DNA of 64,000 bases from a virus (Duplodnaviria > Heunggongvirae > Uroviricota > Caudoviricetes), in the IMG/VR virus record IMGVR_UViG_3300045971_000195, positions 1-64,000 of that record, one strand, 5' to 3'. The notes under the pieces are model-generated. The model worked only from the letters and a program-made list of their open reading frames with translations, was not told the DNA's origin and did no database searches. Both the position numbers and the translations under genes were made by a program. Positions 29,683 to 56,904 of this stretch are shown in pieces (the first letter of the stretch is position 1; each line of letters begins with the position of its first letter).

Positions 29683-30231
29683 TTAAACGTGATGTCCTTT
29701 AATTTCGCCCTTTAGTGCGTCCTTAATTGCATCCTCCATTAACATTACAATCTGGCCAGTTGCGTCAAAGCCCATATCACGTGCCCGGAACTTTTCTAAT
29801 CCGCTTTGGCCACCGTGTAAGTGACCATGAAAGTGAACAGCACCTCTGTGCATTTGATCCCATTCGGCAATCGGATAGTGAAACATCACAATCTTTGTTC
29901 CGTTATAGTTGATATCCAGGTACTTATGTACTTCGGAAAAACAGTTGTAAAACGACTTGTCGTGCAGTGCCTTCTTATCGTGATTACCTTCAACTAAAAT
30001 CTTAGTACCGTTTAGACGACGCATAATTGCAGTTGCCTTCTGTGCATTGTGAAATGCTACATCACCTAAGATGTAAGTCAAATCCTCCGGCTGCACAATT
30101 TCGTTCCATTCACGGATCATTGCTTCATCCATAAACACAACATCATTCTTAAACCGAGATCGGTTAATTGGACAAAACTTCATAATATTTGCGTGTCCAA
30201 AGTGCAAATCGCTTGTTACATATGTTCTCAT
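29683..30231 (-). CDS. calcineurin-like metallophosphoesterase
   Basis: 'SDLHFGH', 'GDVAF', 'GNHD', 'GHLHGG' motifs. Confidence 0.75.
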   Translation of the reverse strand: MRTYVTSDLHFGHANIMKFCPINRSRFKNDVVFMDEAMIREWNEIVQPEDLTYILGDVAFHNAQKATAIMRRLNGTKILVEGNHDKKALHDKSFYNCFSEVHKYLDINYNGTKIVMFHYPIAEWDQMHRGAVHFHGHLHGGQSGLEKFRARDMGFDATGQIVMLMEDAIKDALKGEIKGHHV

Positions 30232-30249
30232 TTTATTTTTCTTTCTTAA

Positions 30250-30290
30250 TATACATACATTATAACACAGGATTTACCATCTGTCAAGTA
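30250..30290 (-). promoter_or_regulatory. sigma70-type promoter TTGACA-N17-TATAAT
   Basis: minus-strand reading CTTGACAGATGGTAAATCCTGTGTTATAAT, upstream of phosphoesterase/ligase genes. Confidence 0.6.
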
Positions 30291-30412
30291 ATTTATTCGT
30301 TCCCAACAGTTGTCTTACGGCTGTTGTACCGTGCGTTATACGCATTCTCCTATATTAGATTCCCCCGGGTGTGGGCAACTTGGACAAAAACGAATAAAAT
30401 TTGTAAACGAAC

Positions 30413-30904
30413 TTAATCGTTAATCTCTGCAACGTATTTTACTAAATTCATTGCGATTGATTCGTTATTTTTTTTAGTATGTTGTAGTGCATACAATCTT
30501 CCTATTACTTCTGGATTTTTAGAATGCCTAACCCCCATTGCCCAATCTGGGAATTCTCGTTCGTCACGATCAATTGTAACTAGATTGTTAATATCTTTAT
30601 GTTTTGAACTTTTTCTAATACGGGCAAGAACCTCTACTAATATATCTTGTTTGCATTCTAATACTTGCAGAAAAGTTCCGCCACAGTATAACAAAAATCC
30701 TGTTATATCGTTTTCTTTATTGTATTTTCTAGAAGAGACTAACATTTCGTTTAACTCTTCATCAGTCATCAGCTTTGTAGCCGTACTGGTGTAAATGTAT
30801 TGCTTGATTTTCATATCACTTCCAAATATAAACACCCTGCGGTGCTTGAACCCACGGTAGCCCCACTCTTCATGGCCGGTCCTTGCTTTGGTCGACTTTG
30901 GCAA
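30413..30904 (-). CDS. BLUF-domain (blue-light FAD sensor) protein
   Basis: 'YQYIYTSTAT', 'ITGFLLYCGGTFLQVLEC', 'REFPDWAMG' match BLUF core Tyr/Gln/Trp positions. Confidence 0.7.
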   Translation of the reverse strand: MPKSTKARTGHEEWGYRGFKHRRVFIFGSDMKIKQYIYTSTATKLMTDEELNEMLVSSRKYNKENDITGFLLYCGGTFLQVLECKQDILVEVLARIRKSSKHKDINNLVTIDRDEREFPDWAMGVRHSKNPEVIGRLYALQHTKKNNESIAMNLVKYVAEIND

Positions 30905-31415
30905 GTTTTTCGGTGTTCCACTGTAGCTACTACAGGATATTTATACTTGCAGACTCAGTGCGGCAGGCTACGATACCTGCATCTCCTAGCGATTTACCTA
31001 ATAATCTACTTGCACCGCATTACTGATGCCGGAGGGATTCGAACCCATCTTCTCCTAGCGCATTTCCATTATGCTACGCGAGTCCTACGGGTCATGACTT
31101 CCGTAAATGGAGCAGGGTAATTAATCCTACTTACCATATATAAACACACTATCCTCTCTACCCATGTACCTCGGGACGGGCTGTTACCGTGCGAAGTATG
31201 TTTATATATGATATGAGCAAAATTACGAGTAGTGGACACTGCCCCTCTTAGGTCGTTCAAGTATTTTATCTCCACAACAATACAAGACACTTAGGCCGTT
31301 TGCAAGGCTCTCACACCATATGTAAGTACACTACCAAGAGTCCGATTCTTGCTAGGACGCATCAACTTTGTGTTTGCAACCACTAGGTATAACCTCGTCA
31401 TAATATACTTGCATA

Positions 31416-31491
31416 TGGTAGGACCACCGAGACTCGAACTCGGAACTGGCGGATTAAAAGTCCGCTGTGATAACCATTTCACTATGATCCC
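31416..31491 (-). tRNA. tRNA-Lys(TTT)
   Basis: anticodon arm GCGGA-CTTTTAA-TCCGC; T-arm CCGAG-TTCGAGT-CTCGG. Confidence 0.7.
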
Positions 31492-31496
31492 ATATA

Positions 31497-31570
31497 TGGT
31501 CCTCCGCCACAGACTCGAACTGTGTTCTTCCGGTTAAGAGCCGGTTGCTTCACCACTAAAGCTTGCAGAA
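31497..31570 (-). tRNA. tRNA-Lys(CTT)
   Basis: loop CTCTTAA; T-arm CACAG-TTCGAGT-CTGTG. Confidence 0.6.
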
Positions 31571-31691
31571 GGTGTTACGTATTTGTTTGTCTTTTACGTG
31601 CCACCTTAAACCATACATGGGGGTTTAAAGTGACACTATAGTTTAGCTGAACTTCGCTTCATATATAGTACCTCTTTTGTTTATGTGTTAA

Positions 31692-31730
31692 TTATACAGC
31701 GTTTTTGGTACGCTGTCAACCACTATTTTT
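31692..31730 (-). promoter_or_regulatory. sigma70-type promoter TTGACA-N17-TATAAT
   Basis: minus-strand reading GTTGACAGCGTACCAAAAACGCTGTATAAT, upstream of tRNA-Lys pair. Confidence 0.6.
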
Positions 31731-32124
31731 TAGAATTTGCCTTGTAGCTCGAAATCGCTACTCGTGCTAAAGATTGATGAACCCAATTTATTACATCAGG
31801 AATATGTGCAGGCTTTGTAAAGTACCTATCGGCTTTATGCTCAAGGATCCCTTCTTCGATATCTCTTTTTTCACTGTTTCCTGTGATAAGAGCAACTTTG
31901 GTTCCTTCTAACGCAGGGTTTGATCTTATGTAATCTAACACTGCATAACCACCTACATCTGGCATAACAACATCAAGTAAAACAACCATTGGTTTATTTT
32001 CTTTTAATATTGAAATAGCTTCTTCACCACCCGATGCTACTACTATGTGACAAGAATCTTTTAAAACTGTTGTCCATAGTAGGCGCATTTCTTTTCGATC
32101 ATCAACAATCAGCACTGCTGGCAT
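31723..32124 (-). CDS. CheY-like response-regulator receiver domain protein (stand-alone)
   Basis: 'LIVDD', phospho-Asp context 'LLDVVMPD', 'ALITG', conserved K in 'YFTKP'. Confidence 0.7.
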   Translation of the reverse strand: MPAVLIVDDRKEMRLLWTTVLKDSCHIVVASGGEEAISILKENKPMVVLLDVVMPDVGGYAVLDYIRSNPALEGTKVALITGNSEKRDIEEGILEHKADRYFTKPAHIPDVINWVHQSLARVAISSYKANSKK

Positions 32125-32153
32125 AATTAACTCCTAGTGATTGTATTTACTAG

Positions 32154-32654
32154 TTAACCGGAGTTTCCATCCTTGATGCGATACCCGGTAATCATGTCAT
32201 AGTCTTGCCAATTACCTAAATCGAACTGTTCTTTCTCATCGTATGTCCAACCTAGCACCTTCATCATCTTGTGCTTCACGAGTACATTCGGACTACGAAA
32301 GCGATCAGTATCATCAAACCCCATCTTGATTCCGATTTCAGCGACTGCACCGCTACGACATATACCTGCGTAGCAATGTACAATAACATTCATATCGTTG
32401 TCAAGTGCTCGTTGCAGTAATGCCACAAGCTGGCCTGCTTGAACATCACTTATGCGACATTCTTCGTCAAATATAGTATCCGTTTCTTCGATATCTAGGA
32501 ACTCGAATCTATGAGATTCCATAAAGTCATGCTTTGCTTCTGGCCACCAGGAGGTAGCAGTATCCATAATTTGGATAAGCATTGAACGTGGCCCAGGATC
32601 TTTGTGAAACGCCTTATTCATATCGTCGGCTGCTGCGTTTTGAATGAATGGCAT
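32154..32654 (-). CDS. Cys-based protein phosphatase (dual-specificity/PTP-like)
   Basis: CX5R P-loop 'HCYAGICRSG'. Confidence 0.7.
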   Translation of the reverse strand: MPFIQNAAADDMNKAFHKDPGPRSMLIQIMDTATSWWPEAKHDFMESHRFEFLDIEETDTIFDEECRISDVQAGQLVALLQRALDNDMNVIVHCYAGICRSGAVAEIGIKMGFDDTDRFRSPNVLVKHKMMKVLGWTYDEKEQFDLGNWQDYDMITGYRIKDGNSG

Positions 32655-32675
32655 ATCTTTCTCCTAAAATTTAAT

Positions 32676-32714
32676 TATAATATCAGTTTTACCTGATGTC
32701 AACCGTTGGTCTCC
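32676..32714 (-). promoter_or_regulatory. sigma70-type promoter TTGACA-N17-TATAAT
   Basis: minus-strand reading GTTGACATCAGGTAAAACTGATATTATAAT, upstream of phosphatase/CheY genes. Confidence 0.6.
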
Positions 32715-32781
32715 CCGGATGGAATCGAACCACCATTCCTAAGTTCGTAGCCTAGTGTATTATCCATTATACTACGGGGAG
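32707..32781 (-). tRNA. tRNA-Arg(ACG)
   Basis: loop CTACGAA; T-arm GGTGG-TTCGATT-CCATC. Confidence 0.65.
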
Positions 32782-32788
32782 AAAAATT

Positions 32789-32862
32789 TGGTGCGATGTA
32801 AAGGAATCGAACCTTTGTGTCTGTCGAGTCAGAACAGTGCTCTACCATTGAGCTAACAAAGC
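32789..32862 (-). tRNA. tRNA-Val(GAC)-like (two acceptor-stem mismatches)
   Basis: anticodon arm CTGTT-CTGACTC-GACAG; acceptor pairs imperfectly. Confidence 0.45.
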
Positions 32863-32866
32863 AAAT

Positions 32867-32956
32867 TGGCGGAAGATAATGGAATCGAACCATCCGCAGC
32901 TCATCGCCACAGGAACAACTTTCCAAGTTGCTTAGTGCCCAGCACTTCTACCTTCC
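32867..32956 (-). tRNA. tRNA-Ser(GGA), type II
   Basis: 90 nt; loop TTGGAAA. Confidence 0.6.
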
Positions 32957-33396
32957 TATTGTTGTTTTACTGCTTGAAGTGTTTGTTTTAACTTTTCGTC
33001 AGTTTGAATTGTGTTATTCTTGAGTGACTGTATTACAACTTCTTTAGGCTTCTGCAAATCAATCGCTTTTTGTTGTGCTTCGGTAATCTTCGGAGCAGCA
33101 ACAGGTGCCTGTGTAATTATGTTTACCGGTAATGCAGGTAGTTGTGCAACTTGCTTTGTTGGAATCATTACAGATAACAGTACTTGTAATTGACCATTAA
33201 CTGTTTGCAGGTGCATCACTTGCTCTTCTAATCTCTTATTTGTCTCGGACATCTGCTCTTGCAGTGCCTTTTCCTTTGCGTACCGTGCATCTATTGTGAT
33301 TGCTACCGGCACTGCTGATACAACAGCAATAATAACTGCTGCGATACCAAATGTACCTAACTTAGATATTGTTTCGCTTAATTCTTTTATGCTCAT
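32956..33396 (-). CDS. membrane-anchored coiled-coil protein (146 aa)
   Basis: N-terminal TM helix then Q/E-rich coiled coil. Confidence 0.45.
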   Translation of the reverse strand: MSIKELSETISKLGTFGIAAVIIAVVSAVPVAITIDARYAKEKALQEQMSETNKRLEEQVMHLQTVNGQLQVLLSVMIPTKQVAQLPALPVNIITQAPVAAPKITEAQQKAIDLQKPKEVVIQSLKNNTIQTDEKLKQTLQAVKQQ

Positions 33397-33405
33397 ATCA
33401 GTTCC

Positions 33406-33645
33406 TTAGTAATTTGCTATATAACCCCACGCATTATACTGCGAGGCAAAGCAATTAGTACCAACTGGTTGCGGATTTACATGTGCTACAACTTGTTGAG
33501 GAATTTGTTGTCCGTACTGATTAACTGCAAAATATTGGATAACACAAATGTTTCCGAATATTTGTCCGTTTTGCGCTTGCCATAGCATCGATGATGCAGG
33601 TAACGCTAAACATAAAAGAAGTAATATAATAAGTTTCTTGAACAT
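33406..33645 (-). CDS. small secreted protein (about 80 aa; internal start of track ORF 33406..33819)
   Basis: signal peptide 'MFKKLIILLLLCLALPASS'; the longer track ORF would overlap a tRNA-like gene. Confidence 0.4.
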   Translation of the reverse strand: MFKKLIILLLLCLALPASSMLWQAQNGQIFGNICVIQYFAVNQYGQQIPQQVVAHVNPQPVGTNCFASQYNAWGYIANY

Positions 33646-33663
33646 ATTATATTTATACTTAAT

Positions 33664-33788
33664 TGGTGGCGACCCAGGGATTCGAACCCCGACTCCGTCC
33701 TGATAATGGAAGTGTATTTGTAGTGCGGAAAACATCCTTGCCAGGATGCGCTTTTTTACTACGTGTGCTACCGTTACACTAAGTCGCC
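33664..33788 (-). ncRNA. atypical 125-nt tRNA-like RNA (tRNA body with about 50-nt insertion)
   Basis: acceptor GGCGACT/GGTCGCC, D-arm, T-arm CGGGG-TTCGAAT-CCCTG, A73 and encoded CCA; extra GTAGT/ACTAC-closed hairpin. Confidence 0.45.
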
Positions 33789-33862
33789 GAAAAATAACAG
33801 GATCAACTTTTATTTTCATTTACAGTGAAATTTTATTAAGTTTGCTGAACTGATCCTAAAAC
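33789..33862 (-). repeat. composite inverted-terminus repeat element abutting tRNA CCA end
   Basis: AATAACAGGATCAAC…TGCTGAACTGATCCTAAAAC directly followed by tRNA CCA. Confidence 0.6.
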
Positions 33863-33936
33863 TGGTACCTCGTTGGAGAATTGAACTCCCATCAACGGTA
33901 TGTAACACCGCTATTCTACCATTAAACTACCGAGGC
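33863..33936 (-). tRNA. tRNA-Val(TAC)-like
   Basis: anticodon arm GCGGT-GTTACAT-ACCGT; T-loop TTCAATT; CCA encoded. Confidence 0.55.
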
Positions 33937-34071
33937 ATAAAAAGGTTTTTGGGAGCATCTTTCGATGTTGTCTCGAGAAAGGGAGATCTTGTTTCTTTCA
34001 CGTTAAACCCGCGGTGTATTGCTACAGCGCCGCTACTTACGACTCAAACCTAACCGTCTATCCCAAAATGA

Positions 34072-34107
34072 GAACATACTAGCGTAATATAAGTATGTTC
34101 TCATTTT
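34072..34107 (-). terminator. perfect 16-bp hairpin abutting tRNA 3' end
   Basis: AAAATGAGAACATACT/AGTATGTTCTCATTTT with 11-nt loop, A/T runs at both stem ends. Confidence 0.5.
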
Positions 34108-34181
34108 TGGTGCTGAATGCGGGAATCGAACCCACGTAAGCTACGTACCAAGCAGCTAGGTTACCACTACATCAATTCAGC
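34108..34181 (-). tRNA. tRNA-Thr(GGT)
   Basis: loop TTGGTAC; T-arm GTGGG-TTCGATT-CCCGC. Confidence 0.6.
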
Positions 34182-34187
34182 TATTAT

Positions 34188-34265
34188 TGGTGCCCAGGAT
34201 GGGATTCGAACCCACACTGTACGGTTTCTAAAACCGTTGTCTCCTACCAATTGCACTACCTGGGC
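34188..34265 (-). tRNA. tRNA with anticodon TAG but short variable arm
   Basis: perfect anticodon arm ACGGT-TTTAGAA-ACCGT; 78 nt; Leu anticodon without Leu-type long arm. Confidence 0.55.
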
Positions 34266-34459
34266 TTAAATGGATCTTCTTCCGGACTAATTACAGGAGT
34301 ATAATCAGGCGTAGTTGGCTTCACGTCTAACGGAGCCGGTATTGTATCTGCAAATTGATTCTCGAGCGCAATATTCGAGTCTAAGAACTCTTGCCAGAGC
34401 GAATCACTAAATGATTCATACACATCAGGTACTGGGATTGCGTCTGTTGGGAGCTTCAT
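34256..34459 (-). CDS. hypothetical acidic protein (67 aa)
   Basis: ORF; slight overlap with tRNA 5' end. Confidence 0.25.
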   Translation of the reverse strand: MKLPTDAIPVPDVYESFSDSLWQEFLDSNIALENQFADTIPAPLDVKPTTPDYTPVISPEEDPFKPR

Positions 34460-34862
34460 AAAATTATTTAGTATTCAACACTCCGTAGCCGGGATTCTGT
34501 TCTATGCTAACATTAATCTATACCAAGTTCAATCACTACACTTACCTCCAGCACATTACATTAAGGTAGTTAATTCCGCCCGAATTTTTCAAGGTAATGC
34601 AACTAACAAGGAGAGTTGTTAGATCAAACTTAAATATTCTCCCCGGGTTTCAATCCGGATCATTGATGCCACAACCCGCACCTATAAGCAAAAGGTTCCC
34701 AGGTGCTGTTTGTGTTGCACACTATATCACGGTAGTATTAACGAGGATACTGCTACAACCAAAAAGGTCTTAGCCCAACTTTCATCGCAATATTGCTATT
34801 CCTTTGAAGTGCCTCTCCTACTCGCCCTTTGCGTGTGTCCCGAACTTCCTGACTTGCGCCCG

Positions 34863-35441
34863 TTAGCTCGAATGTTGAAATCGTTTAGCATTAGCGATAT
34901 TGTTTCCTAACATACGCTGATGCTTTTGTTCTTTAAGTATGTTAGCTTTTTCTTCGCCCAACATTTCTATATGTGTTCTACCTGCAAGTTTATCTCGGAC
35001 ATTGTCGCCCCATCCTGCTGGCATCGTGCGTCCCTTATACCATCCGTGTGGTATAGCATCGCTCTTGTTTGTTTTAACATTTTCAGTACCGTTAGTGATC
35101 CACATCTTACCAAACTGTGAATTTTTATCACCCGGACCACCGTAGCCTCCTTGCAGACCATCTTCGGGTTCTAAGTTAGCCCAATCTGCTGATTCTACTA
35201 TGTTATTCTTTGCACTAAAATCTAATGCAGTGGCTACACATTCGTCTTTGTCTGTATAGTAGCCTAATATTTCTGTTGTAACATTGTTACCGTGATAGTT
35301 AATGTGATTTAACCATCTTGTGCCCGACCCTTTATACTTGGATGGATCTTTAGTGATCGTTTTTCCAAAGTATTTTAAGCCAGTGTCGTTGTGCGTTTTA
35401 ATGTATAAGTAAGTGGGTTTGAACATACACTTATTTATCAT
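34863..35441 (-). CDS. GIY-YIG homing endonuclease
   Basis: 'TYLYIKTHNDTGLKYFGKT'; C-terminus 'NSQFGKMWITNGTENVKTNKSDAIPHGWYKGR' shared with the 36524 paralog; flanked by direct repeats. Confidence 0.75.
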   Translation of the reverse strand: MINKCMFKPTYLYIKTHNDTGLKYFGKTITKDPSKYKGSGTRWLNHINYHGNNVTTEILGYYTDKDECVATALDFSAKNNIVESADWANLEPEDGLQGGYGGPGDKNSQFGKMWITNGTENVKTNKSDAIPHGWYKGRTMPAGWGDNVRDKLAGRTHIEMLGEEKANILKEQKHQRMLGNNIANAKRFQHSS

Positions 35442-35497
35442 TTCTCAATAAAAACGAACTTCCTCTGTTGCCAGCGTTAGCTCGAATGTTGAAAAAT

Positions 35498-35570
35498 TGG
35501 TGCCTTATGGCAGAATCAAACTGCCGCAATCTGATTACGAAACAGATGTACTGTCACTATACGAAAAAGG
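35498..35570 (-). tRNA. tRNA-Thr(CGT)
   Basis: loop TTCGTAA; T-arm GGCAG-TTTGATT-CTGCC. Confidence 0.5.
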
Positions 35571-35576
35571 CAAATT

Positions 35577-35653
35577 TGGTACCCCTGGTCGGATTCGAAC
35601 CGACATCCAAAAACTTTTAAGGCTGTCCGCACTACCAATTAGCGTACAAGGGC
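35577..35653 (-). tRNA. tRNA, anticodon uncertain (loop CTTAAAA)
   Basis: 5' half nearly identical to tRNA 27932..28008; good T-arm/CCA; weak anticodon stem. Confidence 0.5.
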
Positions 35654-35661
35654 ATTAACTG

Positions 35662-35748
35662 TGGCTGAGGGAGTAGGACTTGAACCTACATACTCTTTAT
35701 GAGCGCTGATTTCAAAGACCAGTGTGGCTACCATTTCACCATCCCCCA
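35662..35748 (-). tRNA. type II tRNA with anticodon TTG (Gln-type anticodon on long-arm body)
   Basis: 87 nt; anticodon arm CTGGT-CTTTGAA-ATCAG; variable-arm hairpin. Confidence 0.5.
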
Positions 35749-35756
35749 ATAATATA

Positions 35757-35848
35757 TGGTACGAGCGGAGAGGATCGAACTCTCTCAAGAAGGCTAATCT
35801 GGCCCTAAAAGTCTTATAAGGACTCTCTGACTTCCAAGTCTCGCTCGC
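35757..35848 (-). tRNA. type II tRNA with anticodon TAT (unusual)
   Basis: 92 nt; anticodon arm GAGTC-CTTATAA-GACTT; T-arm GAGAG-TTCGATC-CTCTC. Confidence 0.45.
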
Positions 35849-35974
35849 ATAACAGGTTCTGCTTTTAAGTGCTGCCACTACACTAACACAGTGACTAACT
35901 CTGTGTCCGGGATTCGAACCCGGCCTCTTCATTTTGGAGATGATTAATTAATTGCTGTAAAGAACCTAATAGTC

Positions 35975-36052
35975 AAAAATAACAGGATCAACTTTTTAGT
36001 TTGAGAATGAATCAAATTTTATTAAGTTTGCTGAACTGATCCTAAAACTGGT
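35975..36052 (-). repeat. composite inverted-terminus repeat element (near-identical to 33789 copy)
   Basis: AATAACAGGATCAAC…TTTGCTGAACTGATCCTAAAACTGG. Confidence 0.6.
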
Positions 36053-36129
36053 GCTTGCTACGGTTCCCCGTACAGTAAGGCTAACTAGACTATGTCGTCC
36101 TTATATGCTACTCTTTACATTAAACAAGC

Positions 36130-36262
36130 GAATAAAACAGGATGCCTTTTTATTGACGGCTTTCAAGGCCGGTGCTCTACCTTAGAGCGTACTACGCATG
36201 GAGCGTGGTGTCGGAATCGAACCAACTGATCATAAATGATCGTTGCTGCAAGCATCCTAAAA
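36130..36262 (-). repeat. composite repeat element (GGATGC/GCATCC variant) enclosing a tRNA 3'-half minihelix
   Basis: AAAACAGGATGCC…GTTGCTGCAAGCATCCTAAAATG; inside, T-arm GTTGG-TTCGATT-CCGAC plus ACCACGC-T-CCA. Confidence 0.5.
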
Positions 36263-36443
36263 TGAATAAGCAGACTGAAATAAGAGTCAAGGGGAATCGA
36301 ACCCATCATTTCCACCATCCAGGCGCTCTCATGCCCGTTTCAGTCAGGCTCTGCTTAACTTGGGGGCGTCTGCCGGGTTTGACCGGCGCCTTCGGTCATA
36401 TACCGACCGATATACTTACTTTATACTAAGCTACCCATAAACT

Positions 36444-36517
36444 TGGTCTCGGTAGAAAGAATCGAACTTTCGCTTCTACGTCCCAAACGTAGGGTGATAC
36501 CATTTCACTACACCGAG
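36444..36517 (-). tRNA. tRNA-Pro(TGG), second copy
   Basis: anticodon arm CTACG-TTTGGGA-CGTAG. Confidence 0.6.
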
Positions 36518-36523
36518 ATAATA

Positions 36524-37186
36524 CTATATGACTCTACCTTTCCGCCATCCTTCGGGAATGGCGGAAGTCTTGTTAACTGATAAACTTTCTTTTCCATCGG
36601 TTATCCACATTTTTCCAAATTGAGAATTAGCAGACCCTTGTTGATGGGCTATTTTTTTATATGTTTCTTTTTTCTTCTCTTGTGAAGCAGGTAATGCTGC
36701 TTGCTCACATCCTTTAGCTCTCGACTTGCGATACAATTCTTCCATCGCTTGATCACCTTTCCAAACCGTTCGAAGTTGCTTAAATGCGGATCGCGAAGCG
36801 TCTTTCCACTTTTTGCAAATTTCTTCACTCCACAGATGCTTATTTGCGTAAAAACCAGCTTTACCTACTTTTGTTCTCTGTGCAGGAGTTAATATTTTGT
36901 TTATATAGTCAAATCCGCCGGTACCGCCTCTTCGCAAATTGTAAACATCATCTCTTGCTAAGAATTCGTCAGTAACAACTTCTTTTTCTCGAGCAAACAT
37001 GTCTTTTGAATTATCAAAAGTTTCTAAAATAGTTTTAGTAAAGTATTCGATACCATATTTGCGTATTGCGTTAGAAATAACTTTACCTGAGCCCATATAT
37101 CCGTCATCTAGTGACTTCGTTTTATGGACTCCCACATAAATCTTACCGTTAACGGTATTTTTAATTTCGTACAAATAGTAATGCAT
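36524..37186 (-). CDS. GIY-YIG homing endonuclease
   Basis: 'YYLYEIKNTVNGKIYVGVH' GIY-YIG; 'NSQFGKMWITDGKESLSVNKTSAIPEGWRKGR' C-terminus. Confidence 0.8.
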   Translation of the reverse strand: MHYYLYEIKNTVNGKIYVGVHKTKSLDDGYMGSGKVISNAIRKYGIEYFTKTILETFDNSKDMFAREKEVVTDEFLARDDVYNLRRGGTGGFDYINKILTPAQRTKVGKAGFYANKHLWSEEICKKWKDASRSAFKQLRTVWKGDQAMEELYRKSRAKGCEQAALPASQEKKKETYKKIAHQQGSANSQFGKMWITDGKESLSVNKTSAIPEGWRKGRVI

Positions 37187-37208
37187 ACTTTATTTATGCG
37201 TAACCTGT

Positions 37209-37290
37209 GGGTAGCTGAGGAATCGAACCCCAACCATTTCTAGTCCTGCTGTGTTCGAAACAGTGGTATGCCCAGCATACATAACTACCC
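37209..37290 (-). tRNA. tRNA-Ser(CGA)-like, CCA not encoded
   Basis: loop TTCGAAC; T-arm TGGGG-TTCGATT-CCTCA. Confidence 0.5.
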
Positions 37291-37298
37291 ATAAACTT

Positions 37299-37373
37299 TG
37301 GCATCCTGTGCGGGAATCGAACCCGCATTACCGACTTGAAAGGCCAGCGTTCTAACCATTAAACTAACAAGAT
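37299..37373 (-). tRNA. tRNA-Glu(TTC)
   Basis: loop CTTTCAA; T-arm GCGGG-TTCGATT-CCCGC. Confidence 0.6.
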
Positions 37374-37405
37374 ATAAATTGGTCTGTGTACTTGCCACAA
37401 TATTT

Positions 37406-37481
37406 TGGTCTCCCATGAAGGACTCGAACCTTCGATTTCCTCGTTCCAAACAAGGAGGCATAGCCGCTAGCCCAATGAGAG
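37406..37481 (-). tRNA. tRNA (anticodon read as TGG, third Pro-like; uncertain)
   Basis: loop TTTGGAA; T-arm GAAGG-TTCGAGT-CCTTC. Confidence 0.5.
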
Positions 37482-37946
37482 TTTAATTTTCCATTGTTTG
37501 ATATAATTTAACACTATATCTTCAATAATATGTTTGTACTTGCTGTGCCAGTAATGATGATGCGTTGGGCACAACGGAATAAGATTAGACGGATCATTGT
37601 TCTTTTTATTATGATCTAAGTGATGTACTACTACAATCTTATCTTCTTCGCATACTACGCATTTCTTTTTATGATACGCAAAGCAAGTTGTTTGATATCG
37701 GTCTTGTTTCCAATTCCCGTGATTTTCGCCTGTCCTAAATAATTTATTAGAACAACTATGAGAACAAGTTCCTTTACTATTTTTGAAATCCTTTATAGGA
37801 TTTCCACATACTAAACAATCCCTTTTATTAACGGGATCAAGATAGCACGAGTTTGTGTGTCGCGTTACGCTATGCGGGAATATAAGTTTCTCACAATGAA
37901 CGCATTTAATTTTAGTTGCGGTGTTTAACATTATGTATTTATACAA
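37467..37946 (-). CDS. HNH homing endonuclease (Zn-finger rich)
   Basis: 'HHLDHNKKNNDPSNLIPLCPTHH'; many CxxC; 3' end overlaps tRNA 5' end. Confidence 0.7.
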   Translation of the reverse strand: MYKYIMLNTATKIKCVHCEKLIFPHSVTRHTNSCYLDPVNKRDCLVCGNPIKDFKNSKGTCSHSCSNKLFRTGENHGNWKQDRYQTTCFAYHKKKCVVCEEDKIVVVHHLDHNKKNNDPSNLIPLCPTHHHYWHSKYKHIIEDIVLNYIKQWKIKLSLG

Positions 37947-37998
37947 ACGGTTCAGTTTGTAGTATTTTTCAAACTGAACCGTTTGTCACAGATAAAAT

Positions 37999-38069
37999 TG
38001 GTGCACCTAAGGAGAATCAAACTCCTCTACTTCTGGCTTCAAATCCAGCTAGTAATATCAATCTAGCGC
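37999..38069 (-). tRNA. tRNA-Gln(TTG)-like
   Basis: loop ATTTGAA; T-arm AGGAG-TTTGATT-CTCCT; acceptor imperfect. Confidence 0.45.
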
Positions 38070-38074
38070 ATAAA

Positions 38075-38150
38075 TGGAGCGGGTAGCCAGTATCGAACTG
38101 AGCTATTCAAGTTTGGAAGACTAGTGTGTATCCGTAAACACCTTACCCGC
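38075..38150 (-). tRNA. tRNA-Gly(TCC)-like
   Basis: acceptor GCGGGTA/TACCCGC; loop CTTCCAA. Confidence 0.55.
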
Positions 38151-38159
38151 ATTAAACTT

Positions 38160-38235
38160 TGGTGCAACCTACAGGGATCGAACCTGTTTCAATGGCTCTT
38201 CAGACCACCGCTATGACCACATCAGCTAAAGTTGC
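38160..38235 (-). tRNA. tRNA-Phe(GAA)
   Basis: anticodon arm GTGGT-CTGAAGA-GCCAT; T-arm ACAGG-TTCGATC-CCTGT. Confidence 0.6.
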
Positions 38236-38241
38236 ATATAT

Positions 38242-38316
38242 TGGGTTGAACTGGGGAATCGAACCCTCCCTAACTGTTTCACAGACAGTTGTGCATCCAT
38301 TACACTAAGAACAACA
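38242..38316 (-). tRNA. tRNA-His(GTG)-like (acceptor mismatches)
   Basis: anticodon arm ACTGT-CTGTGAA-ACAGT. Confidence 0.45.
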
Positions 38317-38321
38317 TTGAT

Positions 38322-38399
38322 TGGCTCCGCACTCAGGAATCGAACCTGATTAAACAGTGATTAACAGTCACGGCCTTGTCCATACTTGGCTTCTGCGGA
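38322..38399 (-). tRNA. tRNA-Asn(GTT)
   Basis: loop CTGTTAA; T-arm TCAGG-TTCGATT-CCTGA. Confidence 0.6.
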
Positions 38400-38407
38400 A
38401 TAAAAAT

Positions 38408-38483
38408 TGGCTGGCAAACCTGGGCTCGAACCAGGGACATTTTGATTAACAGTCAAACGCTCTACCAACTGAGCTATATGCCA
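38408..38483 (-). tRNA. tRNA-Asn(GTT), second copy
   Basis: D-arm GCTCAGTTGGTAGAGC; loop CTGTTAA; T-arm CCTGG-TTCGAGC-CCAGG. Confidence 0.65.
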
Positions 38484-38490
38484 ATATTTG

Positions 38491-38564
38491 TGGTGCCCCA
38501 TGACAGAATCGAACTGCCATTACCTGATTACAAAACAGGTGGTCTACCATTAACCTAATGGGGC
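38491..38564 (-). tRNA. tRNA with apparent 9-nt anticodon loop (TTTTGTAAT)
   Basis: perfect 5-bp stem ACCTG/CAGGT encloses 9 nt; other arms canonical. Confidence 0.45.
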
Positions 38565-38600
38565 GTAATTTTAACTTGTATAAGTAATTATACATTACTG

Positions 38601-38675
38601 TGGTAGCCTGTGCAAGATTTGAACTTGCGGCCAACGCCTTATCAAGACGCTGCTCTACCCCTGAGCTAACAGGCT
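38601..38675 (-). tRNA. tRNA-Ile(GAT)
   Basis: D-arm GCTCAGGGGTAGAGC; loop TTGATAA; T-arm GCAAG-TTCAAAT-CTTGC. Confidence 0.7.
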
Positions 38676-38683
38676 ATACACTT

Positions 38684-38757
38684 TGGTACCCAGAACAAGA
38701 ATCGAACTTGTAATTTCCGCTTATCAGGCGAATATTATAACCATTTAATTACCCGGG
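38684..38757 (-). tRNA. tRNA-Ile(GAT)-like with poorly paired acceptor
   Basis: loop CTGATAA; T-arm ACAAG-TTCGATT-CTTGT; 5' end does not pair cleanly. Confidence 0.4.
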
Positions 38758-38769
38758 CATACTAAAACT

Positions 38770-38844
38770 TGGCGATGCGTGGGAGAATCGAACTCCCGTC
38801 TACGGATAGACAATCCGCGATAATAACCATTATATGAACGCACC
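38770..38844 (-). tRNA. tRNA-Asp(GTC)
   Basis: anticodon arm GCGGA-TTGTCTA-TCCGT; T-arm GGGAG-TTCGATT-CTCCC. Confidence 0.6.
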
Positions 38845-38917
38845 TTAAAATAACAGGATAGCTTTTGTCGCTAGACAACCATAGTTAGCTTTTTGTTTGC
38901 TGTAACTATCCTAAGAC
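38845..38917 (-). repeat. composite inverted-terminus repeat element (GGATAG/CTATCC variant)
   Basis: AATAACAGGATAGC…CTGTAACTATCCTAAGAC followed by tRNA CCA. Confidence 0.55.
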
Positions 38918-38990
38918 TGGTACGGGTAGAAGGAATCGAACCTTCACTAACAGAGTCAAAGTCTGTTGTGCTACCACTACACAACACCCG
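38918..38990 (-). tRNA. tRNA-Gln(TTG)
   Basis: perfect anticodon arm ACAGA-CTTTGAC-TCTGT. Confidence 0.55.
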
Positions 38991-38999
38991 AATAAAAAT

Positions 39000-39074
39000 T
39001 GGCGCCGTAGACGAGAATCGAACTCGCCTAAATCACATCGACAGTGTGGTACTCTCCCAGAGAGTGACTACGGC
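39000..39074 (-). tRNA. tRNA-Asp(GTC)-like, second copy
   Basis: loop CTGTCGA with 4-bp stem; T-arm GCGAG-TTCGATT-CTCGT. Confidence 0.5.
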
Positions 39075-39147
39075 AAATATAACAGGATAGTTTTTACGGT
39101 TTCAATTAAAAGTTGAATGTAATTGGTTGCTGAACCTATCCTAAAAC
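39075..39147 (-). repeat. composite inverted-terminus repeat element (GGATAG/CTATCC variant)
   Basis: ATATAACAGGATAGTTTTT…TGCTGAACCTATCCTAAAAC followed by tRNA CCA. Confidence 0.55.
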
Positions 39148-39222
39148 TGGTGGAGGCCGGGGGTATCGAACCCCACTAGACATGATCATTGCAAGTGAAC
39201 ACCGCAGCCCTCTGCTGCCCCC
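39148..39222 (-). tRNA. unusual tRNA (4-nt D-loop; anticodon loop CAATGAT)
   Basis: T-arm TGGGG-TTCGATA-CCCCC; CCACCA end. Confidence 0.35.
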
Positions 39223-39227
39223 ATAAC

Positions 39228-39303
39228 TGGAATCACGTACGGGAATCGAACCCGCCTGCACAGGATGAAAGCCTGCTGACCTAACCCAGAAGTCCAACGT
39301 GAT
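39228..39303 (-). tRNA. tRNA-Glu(TTC)-like, second copy
   Basis: anticodon arm GCAGG-CTTTCAT-CCTGT. Confidence 0.5.
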
Positions 39304-39310
39304 ATAAAAC

Positions 39311-39385
39311 TGGCATACCCCCTTGGATTCGAACCAAGCCTAACGGTTTTGGAGACCGACGTGCTGCCGCTGACACTAGGGATAC
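39311..39385 (-). tRNA. tRNA-Trp(CCA)
   Basis: loop CTCCAAA; T-arm CTTGG-TTCGAAT-CCAAG. Confidence 0.65.
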
Positions 39386-39444
39386 ATAACTAATTGAAGT
39401 CCTGCTTGACATTGTAGTGCAGGTAACTGTGTCGTCTTCAAACT

Positions 39445-39534
39445 TGGTGGATGCGATAGGAGTTGAACCTATACAGTCTTATTTGTACGCGGGTGGGTTA
39501 CAGCCACTTGAGCTCACCAATGCTCGGCACATCC
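39445..39534 (-). tRNA. type II tRNA with GTA anticodon (Tyr-like)
   Basis: 90 nt; loop CTGTAAC; long variable arm. Confidence 0.55.
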
Positions 39535-39539
39535 ATATA

Positions 39540-39623
39540 TGGTGGACAGTGTTGGATTCGAACCAACGTGCAGTTACGAGCGGATTTACAGTCCGCCACC
39601 TTCGGCCTCTCGGTCAACTGTCC
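39540..39623 (-). tRNA. tRNA-Tyr(GTA)
   Basis: anticodon arm GCGGA-CTGTAAA-TCCGC; D-arm like E. coli tRNA-Tyr. Confidence 0.7.
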
Positions 39624-40788: not shown

Positions 40789-41724
40789 CTACAAAATAGA
40801 TCGAAAATAAGCAATTGTTTTTTCTAGCCCTTGATCTAGCGCAATTTTTGGCTCCCAATCAAGTAGTTGCTTTGCTTGTGTAATGTCCGGACGTCGTTGT
40901 TTCGGATCGTCTAGTGGTAACGGCATTTGCAGAATTTTACTATCGCTTCCGGTTAAGTTGATAACTTTTTGGGCTAGTTCGAACATTGTAAACTCACCCG
41001 GATTGCCTAAGTTGATCGGACCTGGCATCCTATCTCCGTCTAATGACATATAACGTTGCATGCCATCTAGCAAGTCGTCAACATAGCAGAAGCTTCTTGT
41101 TTGCTGCCCATCTCCGTATATTGTAATGTCTTTACCTTGTAGTGCTTGAACAATAAAATTACTTACAACACGACCGTCCTGCTTTGCCATCCTTGGACCG
41201 TATGTATTAAAGATACGGATGATTCTAACATCAACATCGTGTACACGATAATAATCCATAAACAATGTTTCGGCTGCGCGTTTCCCTTCATCATAGCAGC
41301 TACGGATGCCAATCGGATTCACATTACCCCAATATGTTTCGGGTTGTGGGTGTACTTGCGGGTCTCCGTAAACTTCGCTGGTGGACGCCTGCAAGATCTT
41401 TGCGCCAGTTCTCTTTGCAAGGCCTAACATGTTATATGCACCGATTACACTTGTTTTCATTGTTTGAATTGGATCCCATTGATAGTAGAATGGGCTTGCT
41501 GGGCAGGCAAGATTATAAATTTCATCTACTTCGACATACAACGGAATGCATATGTCTTGTCGGATAACTTCAAAATTTGGGTTACTTAGCAAATGAGCAA
41601 CATTACTTTTACTGCCTGTAAAGTAGTTATCAACGCATAAGACATGGTGGCCTTGTGCTACTAATCTATCGCATAAGTGACTTCCTAAGAAGCCTGCGCC
41701 ACCTGTTACTAGAATCTTTTTCAT
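40789..41724 (-). CDS. UDP-glucuronate decarboxylase (UDP-xylose synthase)-like SDR
   Basis: '[14 protein letters not shown]' Rossmann; 'YDEGKR' catalytic YxxxK; strong UXS-like similarity. Confidence 0.75.
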
Positions 41725-41727
41725 ATG

Positions 41728-42570
41728 TTAGTTCCAAGGATAGATATCAGTTACAAAGGTAACTGCGTTTGGTACAATCTTGTCTTTGTACTTTTCTAGA
41801 TTATTTTGAACAGTTTCTGGAAAGTAGTCATCAATCTGGACATACTCAAATTTTTCAGTTCCATCAAATCCCAGCAAGCCTACTTTGTTTTCAATCATCC
41901 AATCAACATTTAGTTTATCTAAAATTGCAGGAGTATTTGTTTCTGCATGAGCAAAATTCTTAATCTTATTTGCAGCAAACTCAGTATTACCAAAGTAAGT
42001 AAAATGCCAACCTGCATGCGTAATTGCAATAATTTCAGATGTTGGTTTTTGAGTCCACGGAAATGTATATCCACGTTCAGTTTGTGGATCTGTAAATACT
42101 CGACCGCGTGTAACCATAATATTACAATGCAATTGAGAATTTACCATCAAGTAATTTAATTTAAAGTAGGACATCATAATTCCTAGCTTGTATCTATCGT
42201 AGTCGTTAGGGTCGACTTTAATCATATCAATTGCATCTGGTCGAGGAATTTCATCGCAGTCTGCAACAATAACAATGTCGTCAGGTGCTAAATCAGTTAG
42301 TCCACGTTCAATCGCTTTTCTTTGGAACATTTCGTTTTCCCAAGAATTCGCAGAGTTAGGCATATCGTCTACTAATATGTGCCGAATCTTACTTTCGTAT
42401 TTTTTAAACTTATCCCAATTGTCCTTGAGAAAATAAGGTTTGGGGTTATTTTGGTGTGTTCGATTTGCTTCCGCAATTACGAAAAAATCTACACTGTTCC
42501 AAAGCTCCTCAAGTCTGAGTTCCAAAATATCGAACTCGTTGTAAAATGTAAAACAATCAAAAACTCTCAT
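41728..42570 (-). CDS. glycosyltransferase family 17-like
   Basis: N-terminal 'RVFDCFTFYNEFDILELRLEEL…VDFFVIAEANRTHQNNPKPYF' matches the GT17 hallmark. Confidence 0.7.
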   Translation of the reverse strand: MRVFDCFTFYNEFDILELRLEELWNSVDFFVIAEANRTHQNNPKPYFLKDNWDKFKKYESKIRHILVDDMPNSANSWENEMFQRKAIERGLTDLAPDDIVIVADCDEIPRPDAIDMIKVDPNDYDRYKLGIMMSYFKLNYLMVNSQLHCNIMVTRGRVFTDPQTERGYTFPWTQKPTSEIIAITHAGWHFTYFGNTEFAANKIKNFAHAETNTPAILDKLNVDWMIENKVGLLGFDGTEKFEYVQIDDYFPETVQNNLEKYKDKIVPNAVTFVTDIYPWN

Positions 42571-42676
42571 TCTAATTCCCTGTAATATTGTATCTATTTA
42601 ATATAGCATCTCTTCGCTCAAGAGTAAATTGAGTTTGCTATATAGAATTAAATAGTGTAAACTATACACTTAATGG

Positions 42677-43477
42677 ATGCAACCGATGCGTAATTTTTCG
42701 ACGATGGGAACTTTTGGGGATACAATTTACAGTTTGTGTCTAACCAAAATGTTAGGAGGCGGGAATCTTTATGTTAAGCTAAATGCACTTGATGATTTTT
42801 GCAGAAATGTAATAGGTTGGAAAGATGCAGGCCCTGCAAAGGGAAGATACACACAAAGAGATTTCGAAATGATTGAGCCGTTGCTCAATGCTCAAGACTA
42901 TCTGCACACTGTTGCAGTTTGGAATGGCGAACCTGATTGCGAAGATTACATCGATCATTGGAAAATGCATCTTATTAAAGGTTGGCAAGGCAATCAAACA
43001 GAATGCTACGCACTAACAAAAGGCATGGATATTCATAATATTGATGTTAAAAAGAAAGTGCTTTGGGAACCGTGGCTAACTCCGGTTTCTCCAATTGTAG
43101 TTCCTGGCAAGCCAATTGTAGTAAACAGAACTGTTCGGTATCTCTATGGCGCGCCTAGCGACGAGTGGTACCAATGGATTGAAAACGGACTTGGCGAGTA
43201 TGGCATGTTTGTTGGCTCTCCGCAAGAACACGCAGATTTCGAAGAACTATTTAAGACCAAGATTCATTATCAAAAGACAAATGACTTACTTGAACTTGCG
43301 CAAGTTATTCAAGGATGCGAACAGTTTATAGGTAATCAAAGTGTAGGGCTTAGTATTGCTATTGGATTAGGTAAATCCTATAGATGCGAAGTTCGCAAAG
43401 ATTACGAATCAACACAAACACCACATGGTGGGTACGGCGACACATGGTTCCCACGCATTAACGGGTTTTACTTTTAA
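42677..43477 (+). CDS. GT9-like glycosyltransferase, paralog of 51763..52548
   Basis: 'GTFGDTIYSL…' (SxGD start) and 'GNQSVGLSIAIGLG' donor-binding-like segment. Confidence 0.5.
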   Translation: MQPMRNFSTMGTFGDTIYSLCLTKMLGGGNLYVKLNALDDFCRNVIGWKDAGPAKGRYTQRDFEMIEPLLNAQDYLHTVAVWNGEPDCEDYIDHWKMHLIKGWQGNQTECYALTKGMDIHNIDVKKKVLWEPWLTPVSPIVVPGKPIVVNRTVRYLYGAPSDEWYQWIENGLGEYGMFVGSPQEHADFEELFKTKIHYQKTNDLLELAQVIQGCEQFIGNQSVGLSIAIGLGKSYRCEVRKDYESTQTPHGGYGDTWFPRINGFYF

Positions 43478-43485
43478 AGGATACT

Positions 43486-44184
43486 ATGCATGCACTAGTT
43501 GAGCTACACGATAGCAACTATCAACCGTTGGCAGATTTAACGTGGGAACAAAATAAAGTTCCGTACGCTGAAAAACACGGATACAAAACATTTTGCCGTA
43601 TTGGCGGAATGAAACAAGGGTCAACAATCGGATATCAAAAAATTCATTTTATTCGAGAACTAATGTATGACAATCCTGATATCGAGTGGTTTTGGTGGAC
43701 AGGAACCGATGCAATGATTATGAATTTTAATACACGAATTGAGGATAAAGCACTTGATCCGTATCATTATTATGTATCTGCAGATGTAAACGGTATTAAC
43801 GCAGATAGTTTACTGTTTAGAAATACCTCCGAAGGACGATCGTTTATTGAAGAGGTAATTCGTATTGAGCCAGAAGCATCAAAATTCTGGGATTCGGAGC
43901 AACGCGCAATGGCAACAGTTATGGGACTGCCGCCCGCCACCGGAGACGACAAATGGCCGCCCGGCACAAGAATAAGCGATCAGTGGAAAGACATCTGCAA
44001 GATTATGCCGCAACGGTATATGAATGCGTTTAACTATGAACTGTATCATTACACTGATCACAGAGATAGATTAGGTCAAGATGGCAATTGGCAAGTAGGC
44101 GACTGGTTAATCCATTGGCCTGCAACTTCTCTTGAACACCGAATCCGGTTGGCAAGCTTTTACAAAGAACATATAATTAAATAA
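43486..44184 (+). CDS. GT34-like glycosyltransferase (Mnn10/Gma12 family)
   Basis: 'VPYAEKHGY' and 'IEWFWWTGTDAMI' conserved GT34 blocks. Confidence 0.65.
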   Translation: MHALVELHDSNYQPLADLTWEQNKVPYAEKHGYKTFCRIGGMKQGSTIGYQKIHFIRELMYDNPDIEWFWWTGTDAMIMNFNTRIEDKALDPYHYYVSADVNGINADSLLFRNTSEGRSFIEEVIRIEPEASKFWDSEQRAMATVMGLPPATGDDKWPPGTRISDQWKDICKIMPQRYMNAFNYELYHYTDHRDRLGQDGNWQVGDWLIHWPATSLEHRIRLASFYKEHIIK

Positions 44185-48405: not shown

Positions 48406-48408
48406 CAT

Positions 48409-56880: not shown

Positions 56881-56904
56881 AGTGGGGGTCTCCCCCCACT
56901 TATT

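Follow-up and report, generated by a model that had tools for sequence, protein, structure and literature searches.

The locus and its genes

The stretch of DNA analysed here, called the window in what follows, comprises the 64,000 nt from position 1 to 64,000 of the IMG/VR record IMGVR_UViG_3300045971_000195 (positions are numbered on the window itself), and the element in question is a gene at 30413..30814 that is predicted to encode a short BLUF photoreceptor. In its surroundings, and on the same strand, lie the genes of a single-domain CheY-like receiver and of a Cys-based phosphatase, and a preliminary description of the locus had joined the three proteins into one photosensory and signalling cluster. 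What that description observed has proved largely right, and the cluster interpretation that it built on those observations largely wrong. The features of the locus, in the order in which they would be read on the minus strand, are the following:

32674..32702, minus strand: perfect sigma70-type promoter, predicted to drive a phosphatase-receiver operon
32154..32654, minus strand: Cys-based phosphatase of a probable dual-specificity/protein tyrosine phosphatase (DSP/PTP) fold, 166 aa, with the motif HCYAGICRSG; a backbone gene of the lineage
31723..32124, minus strand: orphan single-domain CheY-like receiver, 133 aa, PF00072
31691..31719, minus strand: perfect sigma70-type promoter after the receiver and ahead of the two tRNA-Lys genes, the spacer and the BLUF gene; it has a homologue in the related contig L113
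31416..31571, minus strand: two tRNA-Lys genes (UUU and CUU anticodons; ARAGORN, Rfam tRNA), conserved in L113
30905..31415, minus strand: non-coding spacer of about 510 nt with degenerate tRNA-like elements and no credible open reading frame (ORF)
30815..30904, minus strand: probable untranslated leader, judged from the limits of the BLUF domain, the starts of the homologues and a GGAAG resembling a ribosome-binding site (RBS) before the ATG at 30814
30413..30814, minus strand: predicted short BLUF photoreceptor coding sequence, 133 aa, with the BLUF core at residues 3-95 and two C-terminal helices
30259..30287, minus strand: perfect sigma70-type promoter downstream of the BLUF gene, predicted to drive the metallophosphoesterase gene
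29683..30231, minus strand: metallophosphoesterase (Pfam Metallophos; phrog_547, E 1.7e-49), present in 51 loci
28526..29440, minus strand: Rnl1-type RNA ligase (PF09511, E 9.5e-19; phrog_562), a backbone gene of RNA repair present in 27 related loci

The BLUF gene and its product

The ORF at 30413..30904 (minus strand, 163 aa, TTG start) matches the Pfam BLUF profile PF04940 with an E-value of 8.6e-24 and 83.9 bits (cut-off 25), covering profile positions 3-92 of 92. This match opens at residue 35 of the 163-aa frame, while the ATG at 30814, which has the Shine-Dalgarno-like GGAAG just before it, would give a 133-aa protein with the conserved Tyr at position 8, in line with the homologues, which in the alignment start 2-7 residues ahead of that Tyr. 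On these grounds, the first 30 residues of the long frame are almost certainly not translated, their codons being leader, and the true coding sequence is probably 30413..30814. Thus, the ORF first described at 30413..30904 exists, and its 163-aa extent does not hold. The JGI gene call for the same gene is 140 aa long.

Aligned to TePixD by phmmer without any gap, the protein has Y8, N32, Q50, W91 and M93 at the positions that they occupy in PixD. None of the five varies among 26 aligned homologues, and W91 and M93, the signal-relay residues of strand β5, sit in the motif FPDWAMG. In PixD, Tyr8, Gln50 and Asn32 form the flavin hydrogen-bond network and Met93/Trp91 act as the β5 relay (PMC5899715). 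The BLUF core with its Tyr, its Gln and the semiconserved Trp had been recognised correctly from the outset, as the Pfam score and the alignment of Y8, Q50 and W91 to TePixD bear out. Searched against the sequences of the PDB, the protein matches BlsA, TePixD, bPAC, PixD and AppA. Its AlphaFold2 (AF2) model (predicted local distance difference test, pLDDT, 86; predicted template-modelling score, pTM, 0.79) consists of a β-α-β-β-α-β-β core followed by two C-terminal helices, and the top Foldseek matches are PixD (2hfo) and TePixD (1x0p), with E 3e-11, a template-modelling (TM) score of about 0.75 and probability 1.0; AppA, BlsA and BlrB are matched as well, also with probability 1.0, so that the comparison with known BLUF structures, suggested at the time as a check, came out positive. 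By every computational criterion, this is a canonical short BLUF protein whose photoactivity is predicted.

Relatives of the BLUF protein and its rarity in viruses

An exhaustive HMMER scan of 1.84 billion cluster representatives retrieved 8906 BLUF proteins, none of them more than 48% identical to the phage protein. The best full-length match, which is also the reciprocal best one, is P0003 (47% identity), encoded on a 5.5-kb JGI contig (L001). This contig also has a run of small ORFs on the same strand, an endonuclease of the GIY-YIG/NUMOD3 type, an L12-like gene and one perfect consensus promoter. Two further small genes are common to L001 and the window, and several to L001 and viral contigs that bear the phosphatase, and due to these shared small genes L001 belongs to the viral lineage of the window. 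There, the BLUF gene has a different gene context, with neither receiver nor phosphatase nearby. The L12-like gene of the contig (4880..5266) encodes a protein with the ribosomal L7/L12 C-terminal domain (PF00542, E 1e-8). The other close BLUF matches whose context was checked, P0006 and P0020, are cellular. A genome scan gave matches of about 40% identity or less in scattered phyla (Verrucomicrobiota, Bacteroidota, Proteobacteria), which is why no donor or host could be named for the gene, and a metagenome scan gave matches of 44% identity or less.

Among viruses, tblastn with the BLUF protein against the 50,697 phage genomes of INPHARED (E<=1e-3 and E<=10) returned nothing significant, the best weak match (E=6) falling inside a 533-aa hypothetical protein of cyanophages. 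No BLUF protein was met in the BFVD viral structure set by fold search, nor in 2.9 million IMG/VR contigs by three pattern scans that were not exhaustive, and a word-indexed protein search returned essentially the query alone; in PHROGs, one family of unknown function matches it (phrog_19899, E 3.3e-14). No characterised phage photoreceptor was found in the sources searched, and phrases such as "phage-encoded photoreceptor" were not found in the literature searched. The nearest precedent comes from rainwater, where two large viral scaffolds were annotated with BLUF (PF04940) and UvdE (Rahlff et al. 2023, PMC10564846). Like the window, these scaffolds combine a BLUF gene on a putative large phage with a sun-exposed setting and a UV-repair gene, which is UvdE in their case and a DenV-like glycosylase (55..456) in the window; they are documented by a one-sentence annotation and a k-mer host link to Flavobacteriaceae, and the likeness to the window is one of description only (PMC10564846). 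A phage-borne BLUF is therefore very rare in viruses, and its carrier is unusual for the short-BLUF kind; judged by sequence and model, this phage-borne photoreceptor candidate is genuine as well as rare.

Could the gene be, instead, a photochemically dead relic, a repurposed BLUF fold (TEX47-like or with the Tyr or Trp substituted) or a recent passenger without any role? It is nearly a singleton, it lacks a promoter of its own and has a modest RBS, the slot that it occupies turns over quickly (see below), the ORF also has a weak Pfam match to TEX47, and naturally substituted BLUF variants do exist (10.1101/2025.05.05.652191). Nonetheless, all the photocycle and signal-transfer residues are intact, the ORF is full-length, both C-terminal helices being present, its model is confident, and the codon usage falls inside the range of the phage, with a codon adaptation index (CAI)-like value of 0.77 against a phage mean of 0.74 and a GC content at third codon positions (GC3) within about 1 standard deviation (sd). 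Moreover, the 47%-identical orthologue in a second phage of the lineage has the same residues, which speaks for retention over considerable divergence. A dead or repurposed protein, or a mere passenger, is thus considered unlikely. As signs of recent transfer, GC3 and codon usage are uninformative, since the BLUF and receiver genes lie on the AT-rich side within about 1-1.6 sd.

The receiver and the phosphatase

The receiver scores 73.1 bits against Pfam Response_reg PF00072 (E 2.6e-20; cut-off 30.2) and has no extra domain. Its active-site set is complete (D8, D9, D51, T81 and K104), with Y101 at the position of CheY Tyr106, so that the single-domain receiver with an Asp triad and the Thr and Lys positions stands as it was first proposed. 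Its best PDB matches are CheY, DivK and Spo0F, and with these and CpdR it has in common the single domain, the full Asp-Asp-Asp-Thr-Lys set and an aromatic switch residue; unlike them, it is encoded by a phage, has no assignment at the equivalog level (no NCBIfam equivalog was found for it) and has no cognate kinase among the window ORFs scanned. That scan took in about 45 ORFs, not every small one being covered, and found no histidine kinase or Hpt partner (HisKA, HATPase, Hpt), so that the receiver would depend on host kinases. The protein was also considered as a cREC, the cyclic-phosphate-processing receiver domain of jumbo-phage RNA/NAD systems (PMC7824862), and this candidate was rejected, since its PF20274 score of 15.8 bits stays under the cut-off of 27 and the profile of classical receivers gives 73 bits. 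A word-indexed protein search gave no close homologue of the receiver besides itself, no bacterial homologue exceeded 33% identity, and tblastn found none in the phage genomes. In Logan contig L112, which comes from another run, the receiver is identical, and the agreement is 100% over the 2574 nt that take in phosphatase, receiver, promoter and tRNA; the junction between the phosphatase and the receiver is therefore not an assembly artefact.

The phosphatase falls below the Pfam cut-offs (DSPc, 22.5 bits against 33.5; Tc-R-P, 23 against 27), and many of its homologues carry precomputed PF00782 or PF22785 matches. Across 28 members of its family, H93, C94, G97, C99, R100, S101 and G102 are invariant in the alignment, and the AF2 model (pLDDT 92) matches VH1, dual-specificity phosphatases (DUSPs) and Tk-PTP in Foldseek with probability 1.0 and TM scores of only 0.35-0.5. 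The DSP-like assignment is based on these invariant P-loop residues and on the VH1/DUSP matches of the model. Conserved D54, E56 and D59 are candidate general acids, and a profile alignment to a DUSP sets an acidic segment opposite the D-loop. Thus, the CX5R phosphatase announced from the motif HCYAGICRSG is indeed there, with its key residues invariant in the family and with its own Pfam score under the threshold. Compared with the VH1-like dual-specificity phosphatases (PF00782, PF22785), with which it has the HCxxGxxRS P-loop and, as far as its model indicates, the DSP fold in common, it is very divergent and keeps the gene company of RNA repair.

Promoters and transcription units

There are 14 perfect TTGACA-N17-TATAAT sites in the window, from 4033 to 62923 and all on the minus strand, against 0.02 expected by chance, which points to a host with the canonical sigma70 -35/-10 consensus. 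The receiver gene starts 29 nt past the stop codon of the phosphatase gene and is preceded by its own RBS only; from this short gap, the RBS without a promoter and the shared promoter at 32702..32674, the two genes are read as a single operon. The BLUF gene would at most be transcribed as the distal member of a unit headed by tRNAs. The earlier claim that each of the three genes lies behind a consensus promoter of its own has therefore been abandoned: only the phosphatase gene directly follows one, the receiver gene shares it, and the BLUF gene comes after the tRNA-Lys genes and the spacer.

Neighbours in a hypervariable slot

The question whether the three genes travel together was approached by comparing 80 phosphatase-bearing viral loci, extended by as much as 8 kb to either side when the contig was long enough, and in none of them (0/80) was a receiver or a BLUF found near the phosphatase. 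In the relatives that have the gene order of the window, the gap between the phosphatase and the metallophosphoesterase varies from 36 to 2143 nt; in the window it measures 1923 nt, and inside it lie the receiver, the two tRNA-Lys genes, the spacer and the BLUF gene. In 78 loci, the ORFs found immediately downstream of the phosphatase fall into 26 families that are not related to one another; an AAA_33 kinase is the most frequent, and a receiver stands there in this phage only. In the nearest relatives, L113 and L114 (phosphatase 81% identical, flanks of 81-88% nucleotide identity), an unrelated 91-aa ORF occupies exactly the place of the receiver and there is no BLUF gene; homology resumes at the promoter, continues over the two tRNA-Lys genes (87%) and into a portion of the spacer (88%), and stops near 30940, just upstream of the BLUF gene. 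The nearest cellular BLUF genes rarely show the combination either, a receiver-domain ORF occurring within their flanks in 3 of 62 loci.

The cluster takes its fullest form as one cassette, in which BLUF would sense light and control the receiver, the phosphatase would reset it and, with the participation of the flagellin homologue, the motility of the host would be reprogrammed. The three genes do lie within 2.3 kb on one strand, with the phosphatase and the receiver predicted to be co-transcribed, and there is a flagellin homologue in the window, but its gene is about 15 kb away. The PixD-PixE pair provides the precedent of a short BLUF protein that binds a receiver-containing protein (PMC5899715), but PixE is a 43-kDa PATAN-type regulator and not a 133-aa single domain (PMC5899715; 10.1101/2021.06.11.447907). 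The phosphatase family, with 1785 homologues and 188 IMG/VR contigs at 53-71% identity, occurs, as far as the 80 loci compared show, without receiver or BLUF. Moreover, Cys-based PTPs are not known to hydrolyse the acyl-phosphate on Asp. The cluster reading falls because the phosphatase of the relatives has neither companion, because the slot of L113 and L114 has another ORF where the receiver would be and lacks BLUF, because the second phage BLUF gene, that of L001, lacks both neighbours, and because receivers stand by cellular BLUF genes in so few loci; a working cassette is accordingly improbable. The picture of sensor, regulator and phosphatase is a chance adjacency in a slot of fast turnover, and the three genes are, on comparative sequence evidence, neighbours in a hypervariable slot and not a co-inherited cassette. 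The flagellin and SPFH homologues that had been mentioned along with the cluster are real, and their membership of it is not, since they lie 13-15 kb away with many genes and tRNAs in between. In addition, PADLOC recognised no known defence system among the three proteins.

A phage as the carrier

The window is phage DNA. The minus strand carries all the genes from 1 to about 41.7 kb, and ARAGORN finds 44 tRNA genes on it, spanning 12374..39623. These serve almost every amino acid, and ORFs for HNH and GIY-YIG endonucleases are scattered between them (e.g., 12557..12946, 14631..15086, 34863..35441, 36524..37186 and 37467..37946). PHROG matches include a T4 Rnl1/gp63-like ligase, a phage phosphoesterase and a Ro/TROVE-like "RNA-binding protein"; the protein-level relatives, at 43-48% identity, are Synechococcus phage BUCT-ZZ01 (Kyanoviridae) and KVP40-like and other T4-like phages; and many genes of the window recur on IMG/VR contigs, some of them of 141-367 kb. 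The tRNAs, the endonucleases, the PHROG matches and the phage and IMG/VR relatives agree independently in this assignment, and the window is best explained as lying in an early arm, accessory in content and rich in tRNAs, of a large, uncultured phage with a tail. Megablast gave no nucleotide match to 30000..33000 among the 50,697 phage records.

Might the stretch be bacterial DNA, or an assembly chimera in which a bacterial BLUF gene and a bacterial receiver gene ended up inside a phage contig? Both are typical bacterial genes, and the BLUF protein is on record from a single contig, one that was not met in the IMG/VR pattern scans. Yet phage-lineage sequence flanks them on both sides (phosphatase, promoter, tRNA-Lys genes and spacer upstream, metallophosphoesterase and RNA ligase downstream), the independent Logan assembly described above agrees without a mismatch over the phosphatase-receiver-promoter-tRNA stretch, the bacterial homologues are at most 48% (BLUF) and 33% (receiver) identical, and the closest relative of the BLUF protein is itself encoded on a phage-like contig. 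Bacterial DNA or a chimera is thus very improbable, and the idea of a phage carrying a BLUF gene holds, both for the window as a whole and for the sequence on either side of the BLUF and receiver genes.

A cyanobacterial host was weighed, given the similarity to BUCT-ZZ01 (Kyanoviridae) and the presence of heme oxygenase (HO) and ferredoxin-dependent bilin reductase (FDBR) genes, and was set aside, as the only phage match of the bilin reductase is in Pelagibacter phage Mosig and a flagellin homologue does not fit such a host. Canonical -35/-10 promoters together with a flagellin homologue argue against a Bacteroidota host as well. Regarding the habitat, the DenV-like glycosylase, the heme oxygenase and the bilin reductase fit a phage of sunlit water, in which a light sensor would be plausible.

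Proposed role of the BLUF protein

The reading that we favour, with a probability of roughly 0.6, is that 30413..30814 is a genuine short BLUF gene, accessory and specific to the lineage, that the receiver is separate from it, that the phosphatase is a backbone gene and that the three make up no cassette. What has been established of this reading comprises the BLUF fold, the full set of photocycle residues, the phage context and the absence of the gene from the closest relatives. As for its operation, the RNA polymerase of the host would transcribe the gene from the promoter at 31719 through the tRNA-Lys genes, and the protein would take its flavin adenine dinucleotide (FAD) from the host. Blue light would then switch the hydrogen bonds between Tyr8, the flavin and Gln50, and Met93, strand β5 and the C-terminal helices would pass the change on, leading the protein to bind or release a partner protein, by analogy with PixD, BlsA, BlrB and BluF, so that some aspect of the infection or of the physiology of the host might become dependent on light. 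The receiver, in turn, would be an independent acquisition, co-transcribed with the phosphatase; its phosphoryl group most likely comes from acetyl phosphate or the histidine kinases of the host, and it would work as a sink or a decoy within a host phosphorelay.

The known systems closest to the BLUF protein are the short BLUFs PixD/Slr1694, TePixD/Tll0078, BlrB and BlsA, which like it consist of one domain and two C-terminal helices without an effector (about 133-150 aa), and which differ from it in being encoded by cells; identity to the solved structures is 23-27%. Short BLUF photoreceptors signal by light-dependent protein-protein binding (PMC5899715), and none of the window ORFs scanned against Pfam is a PATAN-type PixE or a BluR-, PpsR- or Fur-like partner. 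It has also been contemplated that BLUF and the orphan receiver form a light-dissociable pair, a minimal version of PixD-PixE in a lytic phage that senses daylight, with the pair freeing a decoy receiver into a host phosphorelay or the motility pathway and blue light thereby gating the behaviour of the host or the timing of infection. The partner in the PixD-PixE complex, which does dissociate in the light, is a PATAN response regulator, unlike the 133-aa single domain of the phage, whose adjacency to BLUF is unconserved, and we hold such a pair to be a doubtful proposal. Light-dependent reprogramming of the host, as imagined in the preliminary description, is a plausible candidate idea.

Several points weigh against the reading of a genuine accessory photoreceptor next to unrelated neighbours. 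We infer the flavin binding, the photocycle and the expression of the BLUF protein alike; its gene lacks a dedicated promoter, the nearest strong one being 877 nt upstream with processed RNAs in between, and has an RBS weaker than those of its neighbours, so that its expression level is uncertain; and the phage-type BLUF sequences known are two, too few to measure purifying selection. The closeness of the BLUF and receiver genes (about 900 nt, same strand) could reflect a pairing that is hidden from the comparison, both being near-singletons. Besides, the nearest structural matches of the phosphatase are protein phosphatases, and an RNA-repair role for it comes from its gene neighbourhood alone.

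Phages carry photosynthesis and pigment genes. A phage light sensor, if confirmed, would mean that a virus perceives light directly and not through the state of its host and, if active, the protein would be a compact new optogenetic part. As it is small, soluble-looking and endowed with all the photocycle residues, the claim is directly testable.

The phosphatase among RNA-repair genes, and the spacer

As a backbone gene, the phosphatase is conserved across a large phage lineage. Its neighbours in the relatives are the metallophosphoesterase, the Rnl1-type ligase, a TROVE-like gene and, often, an AAA_33 P-loop kinase, which comes directly after the phosphatase in 28 loci and is absent from the window. 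The metallophosphoesterase, the backbone gene that follows the phosphatase in those relatives, bounds the variable slot on its downstream side. From this gene neighbourhood alone, the phosphatase more likely belongs with RNA healing-and-sealing genes than with signalling, and the same company suggests that its substrate, as predicted, is a nucleic acid or another non-protein molecule.

The spacer, which is probably co-transcribed with the tRNA-Lys and BLUF genes, is 86-88% identical to L113 over 31140..30940 and 31418..31315. Its tRNA-like pieces include a GGTTCGAATCC T-loop, and one hairpin shows a change from C-G to T-A that looks compensatory; ARAGORN finds only low-score pseudo-tRNAs in it, it matches no Rfam family, and its fold is no better than those of shuffled sequences (z -0.95). 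The pieces may be unclassified small stable RNAs.

Other genes of the window

Among the remaining genes, several are linked to light or pigments. The pyrimidine-dimer DNA glycosylase, T4 DenV-like (PF03013, 55..456, minus strand), is a gene of ultraviolet (UV)-damage repair. The heme oxygenase gene (56003..56551, minus strand) overlaps that of the PcyA/PcyX-like ferredoxin-dependent bilin reductase (55335..56006, minus strand), and the two form a second light- or pigment-linked module of the window; the match of the reductase to Pelagibacter phage Mosig, the sole one among the 50,697 phages, has 40% identity.

The flagellin homologue (15487..16308, minus strand, 273 aa) is short and has the N- and C-terminal flagellin domains only. 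Copies 55-59% identical to it are present on four IMG/VR contigs, including contigs of 104 kb and 318 kb, and among the phage records it has three weak matches only (about 30% identity), on unannotated records. The SPFH/Band-7 protein is encoded at 17702..18682 (minus strand), preceded by an overlapping small membrane-like ORF at 18669..18935. A hemerythrin-domain protein (22235..22669) and a Ro60/TROVE-like protein (22936..24354; phrog_850), the latter up to 80% identical in related viral contigs, are both encoded on the minus strand.

A proteostasis set on the minus strand (937..1545 and 56548..57405) includes a ClpP protease (E 1e-76), a ClpS-like adaptor (phrog_27368) and an Hsp20 homologue. 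At 40789..52548 there is a strand-switch block, in which from 42677 onwards most genes are on the plus strand and the GC content goes down to 35%; translations read by eye indicate that it holds NAD-dependent epimerase/dehydratase-like genes and other likely nucleotide-sugar or polysaccharide genes. Beyond this block, at 52603..53319, lies the gene of a D-Ala-D-Ala carboxypeptidase (Peptidase_S11).

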